Shown piece after piece: positions 7,302 through 33,250 of a DNA stretch of 64,000 bases (position 1 is the first letter of the stretch; each line of letters starts with the position of its first letter). The translations under genes were made by a program, and so were the position numbers. The notes under the pieces are model-generated. The model was not told where the DNA came from, ran no database searches, and saw only the letters and a program-made list of their open reading frames with translations. The DNA is from a phage. The DNA lies in the sequence record PQ478073.1; one strand, written 5' to 3'.

Positions 7302-7309
7302 TATTGTAT

Positions 7310-7338
7310 GGGACATTATGTCCCATACATGATATAAT
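7310..7338 (+). promoter_or_regulatory. early-type sigma70 promoter (GGGACA N17 TGaTATAAT) overlapped by 11-bp perfect inverted repeat (7305-7329)
   Basis: consensus hexamers; palindrome TGTATGGGACA tta TGTCCCATACA. Confidence 0.6.
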
Positions 7339-30403: not shown

Positions 30404-30708
30404 AAAAATTATTAGTTCCGTTTATTTCTTTTTTAATTATAAGTGGATGTGCCGAACAAGTAAAACTACAATCCCCTGCACCAATTAAACAAGAAATTCT
30501 GTTAGAAAGATGTGATGATGATACACCTCTACCACAAAAAATTATGATTGACAAAAATGGTTTTAAAGGTTATGATGGTGCAGAAATTCTTAAAGTACTT
30601 ACTCGTTGGGATGCAGTCTACAATGAATGTGCTTTAAAACACGACGCATTGATTAAAACTATTCGTGATTTACAAGGTAAAGATATTAAAATCAATATCA
30701 AGGAATAA
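30400..30708 (+). CDS. o-spanin (Rz1-like outer-membrane lipoprotein)
   Basis: signal peptide with lipobox LIISGC; ATGA overlap with i-spanin. Confidence 0.6.
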   Translation: MKKLLVPFISFLIISGCAEQVKLQSPAPIKQEILLERCDDDTPLPQKIMIDKNGFKGYDGAEILKVLTRWDAVYNECALKHDALIKTIRDLQGKDIKINIKE

Positions 30709-30709
30709 A

Positions 30710-31321
30710 ATGAACAAATATCATGTTTACTATACGACAAAATTATCACTTCTTGAAGAATTAAATCAACGAAGTACTAAGATGAAACGCTACACTTTAA
30801 ATGGTATTACTTTTCGATATTTCCCACAAAAAGTTCTTACTTTTGTTAAGAATCCAAAATGCGTGGCATGTGGGATTGAAGCTACTGAAGTACGCATTGA
30901 ACGTTCATTATGTTCTGATCCAGTATATGGTAAACCACATTTAAATGTATATGCTGTATGTGGTCTTTATGAAGTTTTAATGACAGTTGACCATAATCAT
31001 CTGGCATCTAAGGGTGGACCTGATTTAGAGTCAAACTTTAATACTATGTGCTCCAGATGTAATCAACTACGTTCGAATAAAACTGAAACAGTTGATGAGT
31101 TTCTTGAGAAAGTTAAAGGTCGTAATCTTCTCCAAGAACATATGAATAATTTCTTTAATGTACAAAAAAAGAAAAATAACATTGACAAGTCGAAACTACT
31201 AGAAGAACGTAGGTTACGTCAAGAATTATGGGAAACTGATCATCTATGGCATGTTCGAGAGTTTGGTCGTCATATGAAAGCTTTGAAAAAAGAACAGAAG
31301 AAATTGAATAAACATGATTGA
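30710..31321 (+). CDS. HNH endonuclease (free-standing, homing-endonuclease-like)
   Basis: CVACG ... VDHNHLASKGG ... CSRCNQLR HNH motif; start re-placed at ATG 30710. Confidence 0.65.
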   Translation: MNKYHVYYTTKLSLLEELNQRSTKMKRYTLNGITFRYFPQKVLTFVKNPKCVACGIEATEVRIERSLCSDPVYGKPHLNVYAVCGLYEVLMTVDHNHLASKGGPDLESNFNTMCSRCNQLRSNKTETVDEFLEKVKGRNLLQEHMNNFFNVQKKKNNIDKSKLLEERRLRQELWETDHLWHVREFGRHMKALKKEQKKLNKHD

Positions 31322-31732: not shown

Positions 31733-32131
31733 ATGCTTAAAGAATTAGATTTTTCAAACTTAGAAATTATCAGTGCTGTAAAAAACATTTCCGATATGGG
31801 AGATGAGAAAGCAGTTCTTGTTACTATTACTTTTGTAAAAGAAAAAGATAGCTATAGCCATTTAACTGGTATTGAAGAACTAATTCATAAAACCAATCTT
31901 GAGAATGATGGTAAACTCATCAAGCTTCAGGCTTCATATACGCAAAAAACGTCAAATTTTATAGACCTAAATAATGTAGTCAAGGTGGTATACAATCATC
32001 CTGAACACACATATAGGAACACGACAAGAAATGAAAATGTTGCTAACGATTCGAATATTATCGAAGATGTTGAATTCATAAACACAATTTTTGATCGTTG
32101 TTCTAAGGATTTAAAAAAAGTATACATGTAA
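31733..32131 (+). CDS. hypothetical protein
   Basis: start re-placed at first ATG after upstream stop. Confidence 0.4.
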   Translation: MLKELDFSNLEIISAVKNISDMGDEKAVLVTITFVKEKDSYSHLTGIEELIHKTNLENDGKLIKLQASYTQKTSNFIDLNNVVKVVYNHPEHTYRNTTRNENVANDSNIIEDVEFINTIFDRCSKDLKKVYM

Positions 32132-32132
32132 T

Positions 32133-32160
32133 GGGACATTATATGTTCCAATGATATAAT
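32133..32160 (+). promoter_or_regulatory. early-type sigma70 promoter (GGGACA N16 TGaTATAAT)
   Basis: same family as 7310, 43232, 62243. Confidence 0.6.
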
Positions 32161-32434
32161 GTATATAGAAAATGACAACGGACATTGAAAAATGGACACT
32201 GAGAACCTACTTCTCTTGAAAATGTAAAGGATAGATGAGCTTTACCGTTGTAGCGAACAGCAGAAGAAACCTGTTAGAGTACTGGCATTCAAACAAACAC
32301 GATGTAAGACCACGAATCACGGCGACACGGCTGTATAAAGAACTCCGATAAGCATACAGAGAGTTCCTAGATAGATGTATAAGGTTCGCACCTTACCAGA
32401 TTTGCTAAGGGAGTTCAAGGATAGCGGACGCAAT

Positions 32435-32467
32435 TTTTACAAGAAAGTTGCGTCCAAAATTTGAGAA
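32435..32467 (+). repeat. direct repeat copy 1 (ACAAGAAAG nnn CGTCCAAAATTTGAGAA)
   Basis: near-identical copy at 32586-32620. Confidence 0.6.
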
Positions 32468-32585
32468 CAAGTACTACTTTGATCGAATAGAGTTAGTACT
32501 GAGTGCTGTTGATGAAAAGACCAGCGACCGTTGCATATGACTGCGATAGAGAGAAACCGAGCAACCCGCTTTCGCTCTCTAAATT

Positions 32586-32620
32586 TTGGTACAAGAAAGA
32601 TCCGTCCAAAATTTGAGAAA
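32586..32620 (+). repeat. direct repeat copy 2
   Basis: matches 32435-32467 with 2-3 mismatches. Confidence 0.6.
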
Positions 32621-32658
32621 TTCGCAATTCGATAATATCCGATGCCATCATCGTCAAG

Positions 32659-32681
32659 AGAGACTTAATTGTCTCTTTTTT
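32659..32681 (+). terminator. intrinsic terminator
   Basis: AGAGAC/GTCTCT stem, T5. Confidence 0.55.
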
Positions 32682-32821
32682 ATTACCTTCATTCCCCTGC
32701 GGGGGGATGTAATAGTCCTCAACAAATCCCGTCAAGTTTTTAAAGTACATTATCATTTTCAGAAGGAACTAGTTTACGAAGTAAACGCAGTGACTTCTTG
32801 AGTTACGAGAGAACGAAGTGA

Positions 32822-33250
32822 ATGAGTAACACAACGAAAATATCCGATAAATCCGAATTAACACAAATGTTATTCAAAGAATATTTTGAGTTTCAGATAA
32901 AAGACGAACATCAATTACCACAGCAATATTTGAAAAGAATTAAAGATCCGTCAGTAATTACTAAAGAAACTAATTTTTATAATAGTATTTTGGATTTCGT
33001 TAAATCAGTTCATACAACAAGACCTATTGTAGTTTTGTTTTTTGATAAATCTATTCCTTTAGTAGTTCCTGAAAATGTATTTTTTATTTCAGAAACTGAT
33101 TTAAATAATCAAAGTACTGTAAGTAGATTAAGAAATTGCTTACTTGTAGTATGTGATTCTTCTTTGTATAATAACAGAATACTATGGGATAGAAGTAAAC
33201 GCAATGCAGTTTCTGAAATGAATCCTGAAATTACCTTTATTATTAACTAA
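32822..33250 (+). CDS. hypothetical protein
   Basis: ATG-initiated ORF. Confidence 0.5.
   Translation: MSNTTKISDKSELTQMLFKEYFEFQIKDEHQLPQQYLKRIKDPSVITKETNFYNSILDFVKSVHTTRPIVVLFFDKSIPLVVPENVFFISETDLNNQSTVSRLRNCLLVVCDSSLYNNRILWDRSKRNAVSEMNPEITFIIN

Follow-up and report, generated by a model that had tools for sequence, protein, structure and literature searches.

The 64,000-nucleotide (nt) stretch of phage DNA in sequence record PQ478073.1, here called the window, carries at ~32132-32850 on the plus strand a locus that is strongly supported as a stand-alone gene for a large structured noncoding RNA, not for a protein. A preliminary description, made from the letters of the window, had proposed a promoter-to-terminator unit without a credible open reading frame (ORF) as a candidate structured RNA. 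Alignment of 45 diverged homologues bore this out: compensatory changes maintain a common fold, and no reading frame is conserved. Judged from the sequence, the RNA would be about 520-700 nt long and would contain many helices and three pseudoknots. It appears to represent a class of large structured RNAs that has not been described before; we rate it as new because no Rfam family matched it and because we found no paper that describes this RNA in RaK2-like phages.

Compensatory changes maintain a pseudoknotted fold

The minimum free energy fold of the RNA had a value of -130.8 kcal/mol (z = -3.99), and none of 100 shuffled sequences folded equally well. RNAalifold, given 14 sequences, returned 64 pairs, 31 of which showed compensatory changes. 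A model of 98 pairs in 18 helices was curated by eye and with a column-pair scan, and was mapped on a MAFFT alignment of 45 members less than 90% identical, the kind of comparison that the preliminary description had proposed as a check. Double changes were present at 69 of the 98 pairs, compared with 35-41 in controls whose partners were slid by 1-3 columns; 90.6% of cells were paired (36.8-42.9% in the controls), compensatory cells numbered 704 (100-125) and the covariation score was 0.448 (0.065-0.103), although this control is biased in the model's favor because the window sequence and MAFFT alignments were part of the basis on which the model was drawn. The observed values were reached by none of 500 shuffles, a count that is not a probability because the members are related by descent.

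G-U pairs were frequent; one P12 pair, for example, is G-U in 31 of the 45 members. Since such pairs fit the plus strand only, we assign the RNA to that strand. The weakest helices were P7, P14 and the hairpin of the 3' box, with little or no double change. We conclude from the alignment that compensatory changes keep at least 17 conserved helices, three of them pseudoknots that join a loop to a distant strand, across phage paralogues and bacterial islands. The parts of the unit are listed in Table 1.

Table 1. Features of the RNA locus, its neighborhood and its copies (positions are those of the window unless another genome is named; P, helix; PK, pseudoknot)
Feature	Position	Strand	Remarks
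Promoter	32132-32160	+	-35 TGGGACA, -10 TATAAT preceded by TG (extended -10); promoter scan and family conservation
RNA core, ~520 nt	32167-32686	+	Inferred start to terminator U-tract; spanned by nhmmer matches in all homologues
PK1	32175-81 / 32245-51	+	Leader ACAACGG with CCGTTGT in P2 loop; double changes in 6/7 pairs (45 members)
P1	32207-17 / 32227-34	+	Between PK1 strands; conserved loop GAAAAYGUA; 7/8 pairs with double changes
P2	32239-41 / 32252-54	+	GCT/AGC; 100% paired; 2/3 pairs covary
P3	32257-61 / 32330-34	+	ACAGC/GCTGT; 100% paired; 4/5 pairs covary
P4	32271-78 / 32317-22	+	Within P3, along with a variable-length insert; 96% paired
P6	32340-45 / 32361-66	+	Every pair covaries
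P7	32381-85 / 32390-94	+	Weak, 62% paired
Joiner	in P6/P7 region, 32340-32394	+	CUAGAUAGAYAUAUAAGG; conserved
AAGGGAG	32413-32419	+	Invariant in 45 sequences
Module copy 1	32426-32467	+	Hairpin GGACGCAA/TTGCGTCC and 30-nt motif TACAAGAAAGTTGCGTCCAAAATTTGAGAA (32438-67)
P8, long hairpin	32470-81 / 32488-32500	+	10/12 pairs covary
P9 pseudoknot	32482-87 / 32628-33	+	P8 loop ATCGAA with TTCGAT; 99.6% paired; 6/6 pairs with double changes
3' core	32505-32633	+	Most conserved sequence of the family
P10	32505-08 / 32522-25	+	
PK3	32530-34 / 32561-65	+	GUUGC of GACCGUUGC with GCAAC in P12 loop; 100% paired; 3 pairs covary
P11	32542-46 / 32622-26	+	99.6% paired
P12	32549-53 / 32569-73	+	100% paired
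P13	32576-79 / 32615-18	+	Carries module copy 2 (32590-32619); 93% paired
P14	32641-44 / 32652-55	+	GATG/CGTC, ends in CGTCAAG copy 1 (32652-58); weak: 81% paired, no double changes at aligned columns
Terminator-like hairpin	32657-32686	+	GAGAC (32660-64)/GTCTC (32671-75), extendable to 9 bp, then TTTTTTATT; minimum free energy fold, covariation
3' box	32690-32736	+	Hairpin CATTCCCC-TGCG-GGGGGATG (32690-32709), then CAACAAATCC and CGTCAAG copy 2 (32730-36)
Tail hairpins	32778-32830	+	GAAGT[AAACGCAGTG]ACTTC (32778-97), GTTAC[GAGAGAACGAAGTGAATGA]GTAAC (32802-30)
HNH (homing-type) endonuclease ORF	30665-31321		Two genes upstream; no linkage to the remaining three RNA copies
Window copy of the RNA	PBECO4 38579-37908		
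Second copy	PBECO4 94227-93654		Upstream of hypothetical, DNA methyltransferase and cytidyltransferase genes
Third copy	ECO103 128875-128287		Between opposite-strand endonuclease VII and baseplate-hub genes
Fourth copy	ECO103 18792-18243		

The locus lacks a conserved reading frame

The absence of a credible ORF noted in the preliminary description held on closer reading. Each sense frame contains 8-18 stop codons, and the longest sense ORFs in the gap encode 29-38 amino acids (aa), except for a 71-aa ORF with a TTG start that spans the terminator and the box. Counting both strands, the longest ORF is antisense and encodes 87 aa. Across the 45 homologues no reading frame was kept, and antisense ORFs occurred in frames 0, 1 and 2 with differing ends; a conserved antisense ORF was ruled out because frames and ends differ among members. 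A small ORF after the invariant AAGGGAG was also ruled out, since neither start codons nor frames are kept. Indels among close relatives were mostly not multiples of three. A conserved protein-coding ORF in homologous regions, which the preliminary description had named as the finding that would refute its reading, was thus sought in the 45 homologues and not found. In practical terms, many genome records annotate spurious "hypothetical proteins" over this RNA; among the short ORFs annotated here are gp516 of 121Q and A4_511, and Salmonella phage SD records have as many as six "hypothetical proteins".

Promoter, putative start and terminator-like hairpin

At the head of the locus lies a promoter of the sigma-70 type: GGGACA and TATAAT stand 16 nt apart (32133-32160), match the consensus at 10 of 12 positions and have a TG ahead of the -10. 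Nearly every family member is preceded by a comparable pair: a -35 of TGGGAC, TGAAAC, TGAAAT or TGGAAC and, ~16-17 nt away, a -10 of TGnTATAAT (TATACT in the islands). "Divergent RpoD-like" promoters with a TGAAACG-like -35 and a classic -10 are known from CBB and GAP32, and the 18 such sites of CBB lie mostly upstream of DNA-synthesis genes (PMC5259590). By its sequence, the window promoter falls in this class and has an extended -10. Hence the promoter reported in the preliminary description is present, but it is not simply of the consensus early type, because its -35 belongs to the divergent RpoD-like class (PMC5259590). We infer that transcription starts at about 32166-32168.

The terminator first proposed at 32659-32681 also stood, as a terminator-like hairpin. 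In the minimum free energy fold a 9-base-pair (bp) stem, AAGAGAGAC/GUCUCUUUU, is followed by U-rich sequence, and this hairpin (helix 17 of the model) covaries in all five of its pairs in the 45-member alignment. A simple terminator scan of the plus strand did not list the hairpin, so the call rests on the fold and on reading of the sequence.

Two further observations concern these signals. Another promoter-like sequence of this class, TGGGACA...TGATATAAT, lies at 7309-7338, with its -35 inside the palindrome TGGGACATTATGTCCCA. In one paralogue class (PBECO4 93654-94227; also L010, L009 and L051), a G+C-rich hairpin and a U-run come directly after the -10 and before the core; they look like an attenuator or a 5' protective hairpin.

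Conservation continues beyond the terminator

The preliminary description had ended the unit at the terminator. This boundary did not hold: conservation runs on through a C/G box and tail hairpins, and conserved noncoding sequence ends only at ~32850. The C/G-box hairpin and CAACAAATCYCGTCA(A)G were kept downstream of the terminator position in every copy examined. Within a PBECO4 or ECO103 genome the box occurs only beside the four RNA copies, and it was therefore ruled out as a general phage promoter or terminator signal. Its stem (helix 18) showed one-sided (G-U) changes only. A GAACGNAGUGA-type loop is present in the tail of 26 of the 45 members. The clearest of these loops are flanked by stems of 5-8 bp (20 bp in one) whose sequences are unrelated, and several others have only weak stems of 2-4 bp.

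The tail was kept even in copies that have no co-directional gene after them, and 20 of the 45 members lack the terminator hairpin. Hence, for at least some copies, the functional transcript probably runs past 32686. The 121Q-type annotation starts the downstream 142-aa ORF at ATG 32822, and the PBECO4 annotation starts it 45 nt later, at 32867. Because ATG 32822 sits in the loop of a tail hairpin, the next gene probably starts at 32867.

Several repeats connect the core with its 3' flank. CGTCAAG occurs twice per unit (32652-32658 and 32730-32736), and both copies change jointly across lineages, as CGTCAG, CGTCAAG, CTTCAAG or GTGTCA; we sought a common pairing partner for the duplicated motif among the members and found none. 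CGATAATATCCGAT, which follows P9 at 32630-32643, recurs in the tail as CGAAAATATCCGAT (32835-32848) with 93% identity, and the tail may have arisen by partial duplication of the core's 3' end. A 30-nt stretch of the 5' leader (32168-32197) is 77% complementary to 32731-32760, just past the 3' box; these segments could form a closing helix.

A modular insert within the core

A direct repeat of roughly 30 bp had been placed at 32435-32467 and 32586-32620. The repeat is real, with copies of 30 nt at 32438-32467 and 32590-32619 that are 93% identical, but from its distribution it reads as a modular insert of ~30 nt and not as a tandem feature of the core. Depending on the paralogue, the module lies after AAGGGAG, within P13, at both sites or at neither, and in the genome it occurs only within RNA units. 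The stable hairpins pointed out in the preliminary description were likewise recovered: the arms GGACGCAATTTT and AAAGTTGCGTCC (32426-32437 and 32444-32455) are 92% complementary, and CCCCTGCGGGG, at 32694-32704, lies inside the 8-bp hairpin at 32690-32709.

The RNA forms a multigene family in jumbo phages

In blastn searches, a 731-bp query around the locus was 100% identical to the E. coli and Salmonella jumbo phages SD-2_S15, ECO103 4-12-1 and JP4, 99.9% identical to PBECO4 and 97% identical to 121Q, all of them Asteriusvirus with genomes of ~350 kb. The interval is a gap in the 121Q and PBECO4 records, unannotated or doubtfully annotated. Altogether blastn found it in 72 phage records, all from RaK2-like jumbo phages, with identity down to 65-72%. 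The hosts of these phages are Escherichia, Klebsiella, Salmonella, Erwinia, Yersinia, Cronobacter, Pectobacterium, Serratia and "Xanthomonas", and the records mostly leave the interval unannotated or place short "hypothetical proteins" over it.

A profile search of the Asteriusvirus genome, assembled from PBECO4 1-150 kb and pieces of ECO103 4-12-1, found exactly four copies, all on the same strand. The paralogues are only ~60-65% identical to one another, yet all fit the fold, and their classes are syntenic across genera. We therefore regard them as old, retained duplications. A scan for the motif GACCGTTG...AACMGRNCAACCCGC, with matches confirmed by nhmmer, identified 53 loci in IMG/VR, at most about five or six per jumbo contig; among metagenomes, 86 of 92 loci with the motif pattern were confirmed.

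Window-wide homology scans found a single copy of the RNA unit in the 64 kb. Upstream of it lie the HNH endonuclease gene, a hypothetical gene and a "structural protein" gene; downstream are a hypothetical gene and a Dps-like gene. G+C content is 0.415-0.425 across 32200-32700, compared with 0.25-0.35 in the flanks. No downstream protein is common to all copies, and downstream genes are kept only within syntenic classes. A protein partner encoded beside the RNA was ruled out on this ground; Pfam, PHROGs and PADLOC were uninformative for the neighbors. In two jumbo-phage loci, matches to the enterobacterial small RNA (sRNA) STnc370 lie beside the element, at 31.8 and 35.4 bits, below the gathering threshold of 54 (L004 1338-1404 and L114 572-635).

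Single copies reside in bacterial islands

Nine bacterial contigs carry the RNA: Citrobacter, Serratia (two), Silvania, Enterobacter, Buttiauxella, two Enterobacteriaceae and one 2.8-kb contig binned as Clostridium. Among complete E. coli genomes it was present in 2 of 5,426. The bacterial copies are single and lie in small integrative elements with a recurrent layout, in which a host gene is followed by an integrase, the RNA on the same strand as the integrase, a convergent CI-like S24 repressor with a Cro-like gene, a membrane protein of 257-286 aa and further genes. Serratia fonticola departs from this layout, since its RNA and integrase lie on opposite strands, and so does one contig of an Enterobacteriaceae metagenome-assembled genome, which has no integrase beside the RNA. 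Five elements encode a large serine recombinase as their integrase, and three a tyrosine integrase. Eleven metagenome loci have the same island neighbors.

When islands were compared with jumbo phage DNA, the RNA unit, including its promoter, was the only sequence shared, and the membrane protein of the islands had no homologue in the jumbo phage. In E. coli LR-29-1 (NZ_AP027515.1 3469971-3488553), an island of ~10 kb between ffs and ybaA holds the RNA within 1.4 kb of unannotated sequence. It also carries a tyrosine integrase disrupted by IS3, the membrane protein and a candidate defense system, PDC-M45 (DuOB, DUF488, mSLOG/DUF4326).

Possible functions of the RNA

We rank first, at about an even chance, a trans-acting RNA machine: a protein scaffold or decoy, or a ribozyme. 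It is placed first because the unit is self-contained whatever its neighbors and because several paralogues combine one core with variable inserts. The unit behaves as a stand-alone gene, in that one class lies between opposite-strand genes and the island copies converge on cI. Its invariant single-stranded loops look like interaction surfaces and so favor action in trans. Host RNA polymerase would start at ~32167 from the TGGGACA/TG-TATAAT promoter; most transcripts would end at the U-tract (~32681-86), and some would read through into the conserved box and tail. The folded RNA would then act in trans, during infection or after island activation, by binding a conserved enterobacterial or phage protein as scaffold or decoy, or as a ribozyme. 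The 4-6 diverged paralogues of a jumbo-phage genome might provide dosage or, through their variable inserts, slightly different specificities.

A more specific proposal, which we hold tentatively, is that a triply pseudoknotted machine (a ribozyme or the core of a ribonucleoprotein) forms a small multigene family in jumbo phages and is a shared component or target in conflict among phage, satellite and host. The presence of 4-6 old paralogues per jumbo phage and of a single copy beside an island integrase, in one island together with a candidate defense system, suggests a role in phage-host or phage-satellite conflict. The islands are possibly satellites of jumbo phages, and the sharing of the RNA offers a direct test of their dependence on them.

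Besides the limits of the slide and shuffle controls given above, several points weigh against a trans-acting RNA gene. The conservation of box and tail past the terminator is not explained by a simple promoter-to-terminator RNA gene. Copies without the terminator would read into downstream genes, and therefore fit a leader RNA. Our literature search found no expression data for any RaK2-like phage, and we identified no protein partner, target or catalytic motif.

Two cis-acting alternatives deserve consideration, the first being a replication-origin RNA. T4 has several origins per genome, and ColE1 RNA II is a structured primer RNA of ~550 nt. Like ColE1 RNA II and the T4 origins oriF and oriG, the locus combines a promoter with a transcript of several hundred nt, and a fold (RNA II) or a middle-type promoter (T4) is tied to downstream G/C-rich and A+T-rich elements. 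A transcript from a middle-type promoter would fold, remain hybridized to the DNA at the G-rich/C-rich box and the A+T-rich sequence that follows, and prime DNA synthesis; an island copy would let its island replicate upon infection by a helper jumbo phage. The 4-6 dispersed copies per ~350-kb genome are comparable to the several origins of T4, the C4/G6 box and A+T-rich sequence are conserved only with RNA units, and the whole unit with its promoter is the sole DNA common to jumbo phages and islands. The promoter is also of the TGAAACG class that in CBB mostly precedes DNA-synthesis genes (PMC5259590). However, three covarying pseudoknots and invariant loops exceed the known needs of R-loop priming, and the RNA is far more elaborate than its counterparts. 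A canonical terminator separates the core from the G-rich box in about half of the copies, including that of the window. Cumulative GC skew does not turn at the locus, gene orientation is the same on both sides, and no RNAI or RNA II (ColE1-type) model in Rfam matched. The tail hairpins, with conserved loops and covarying stems, point to an RNA-level function beyond a hybrid. We consider an origin RNA unlikely.

In the second alternative, to which we give a similarly low probability, the RNA would serve as a very long 5' leader and govern read-through by conditional termination, processive antitermination or the generation of antisense RNA. Read-through would reach co-directional genes in most phage copies; in the others it would reach cI or late genes, which are convergent. 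The 20 members without a terminator between core and tail fit such a leader, as does the tail that abuts the start of the next gene in several paralogue classes. So do the two co-changing CGTCA(A)G copies, as expected of alternative pairings, the extra hairpin and U-run right after the promoter in one class, and the island copies that point into the 3' end of cI. Yet downstream genes are unrelated between paralogue classes, and in one class, as in every island copy, no co-directional gene follows. Covarying helices that exclude one another were not found. Known bacterial leaders and put-type antiterminator RNAs are far smaller than this RNA of ~500 nt with three pseudoknots.

A mobile or self-processing ribozyme, such as a selfish intron-like or self-cleaving element with the CGTCA(A)G motifs as processing sites, seems very improbable. 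It would account for the patchy spread over unrelated mobile elements that share only the RNA unit, for the multiple copies per genome and for a pseudoknotted architecture typical of large ribozymes, and the window has a homing-type HNH endonuclease gene two genes upstream of the RNA. But no group I, group II, RNase P or small-ribozyme model matched even at E <=5-10, the copies are intergenic and interrupt no genes, the age and synteny of the paralogues argue against recent transposition, and none of the other copies is linked to the HNH gene. Least credible of all is one or more small protein genes, or a purely DNA-level regulatory region, without functional RNA structure: the annotated short ORFs and the 87-aa antisense ORF speak for it, but homologue ORFs vary in frame, ends and strand, indels disregard multiples of three, helix substitutions are compensatory and G-U pairs are strand-specific.

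Comparison with known RNAs

The covariance search that the preliminary description had proposed returned no family: at gathering thresholds, the 4227 models of Rfam 15 gave 0 matches in the whole window. Within 32000-32900, at E <=10, there were five matches, all sub-threshold (four small nucleolar RNA models and one H. pylori sRNA), and no match recurred in 12 diverse members or in 9 bacterial loci. ARAGORN found 0 tRNA or transfer-messenger RNA (tmRNA) genes in the window, in agreement with the earlier remark that no tRNA-like T-arm was present. Rfam includes GOLLD, ROOL, HEARO, OLE and raiA, none of which matched at gathering or permissive thresholds.

Several likenesses to known motifs were dropped. 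Hammerhead-like CUGAUGAG/GAAAC, lambda nut-like boxA/boxB and ToxI-like AGAAAUUC either misfit the conserved positions or had no Rfam support. As a lead toward a CRISPR repeat mimic or RNA anti-CRISPR there was a likeness of TTCCCC..GGGGAT(G)AA to the type I-E repeat of E. coli, but stem and loop differ; this comparison included no search of a repeat library. A catalogue of >10,000 short viral structured-RNA candidates may contain fragments of this RNA (PMC10690425).

The jumbo phage PA5oct, related to 121Q, PBECO4 and RaK2, has two ORF-free "putative lncRNA" (long noncoding RNA) genes, ncRNA001 and ncRNA002, of 236 and 451 nt; by RNA sequencing they are highly transcribed, with up to 5% of phage reads (PMC7318152). 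The RNA described here resembles them as an ORF-free region of a few hundred nt in a related jumbo phage. The G+C-rich ncRNA002 (MK797984 21951-22401) was ruled out as a homologue at the sequence level, since nhmmer gave no match and the invariant motifs are absent.

GOLLD and ROOL are the closest in kind: structured noncoding RNAs of 500-800 nt in phages and prophages, found comparatively, with function not known, and forming independent transcription units (PMC12286853, PMC5737381). The RNA of the window differs from both in matching neither Rfam model in sequence or structure. GOLLD and ROOL occur in Firmicutes and related groups, whereas the carriers here are RaK2-like jumbo phages of Enterobacterales hosts, and, unlike GOLLD and ROOL, this family has several diverged paralogues per genome.

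With RNase P RNA and group I introns the RNA shares its size, long-range helices, loop-to-strand pseudoknots and a conserved core with variable peripheral inserts. It differs in that it does not lie inside a gene and matches none of their covariance models even at permissive thresholds, and we recognized no catalytic-core motifs in it. GACCGUUGCA...AGAGAGAAACCG may resemble the segment CGACCAGUGCAACAGAGAGCAAACCG of E. coli M1 RNA. The new RNA is experimentally approachable, being deeply conserved, richly covarying and present in cultivable E. coli phages (among them PBECO4, 121Q and phAPEC6), and its fold with three pseudoknots is already well enough constrained to suit electron cryomicroscopy, probing and genetics. 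Few large, elaborately folded RNAs are known from bacteria and phages, namely RNase P, group I and II introns, tmRNA, OLE, GOLLD, ROOL and raiA, and each of them has revealed new biochemistry or a new RNA architecture.

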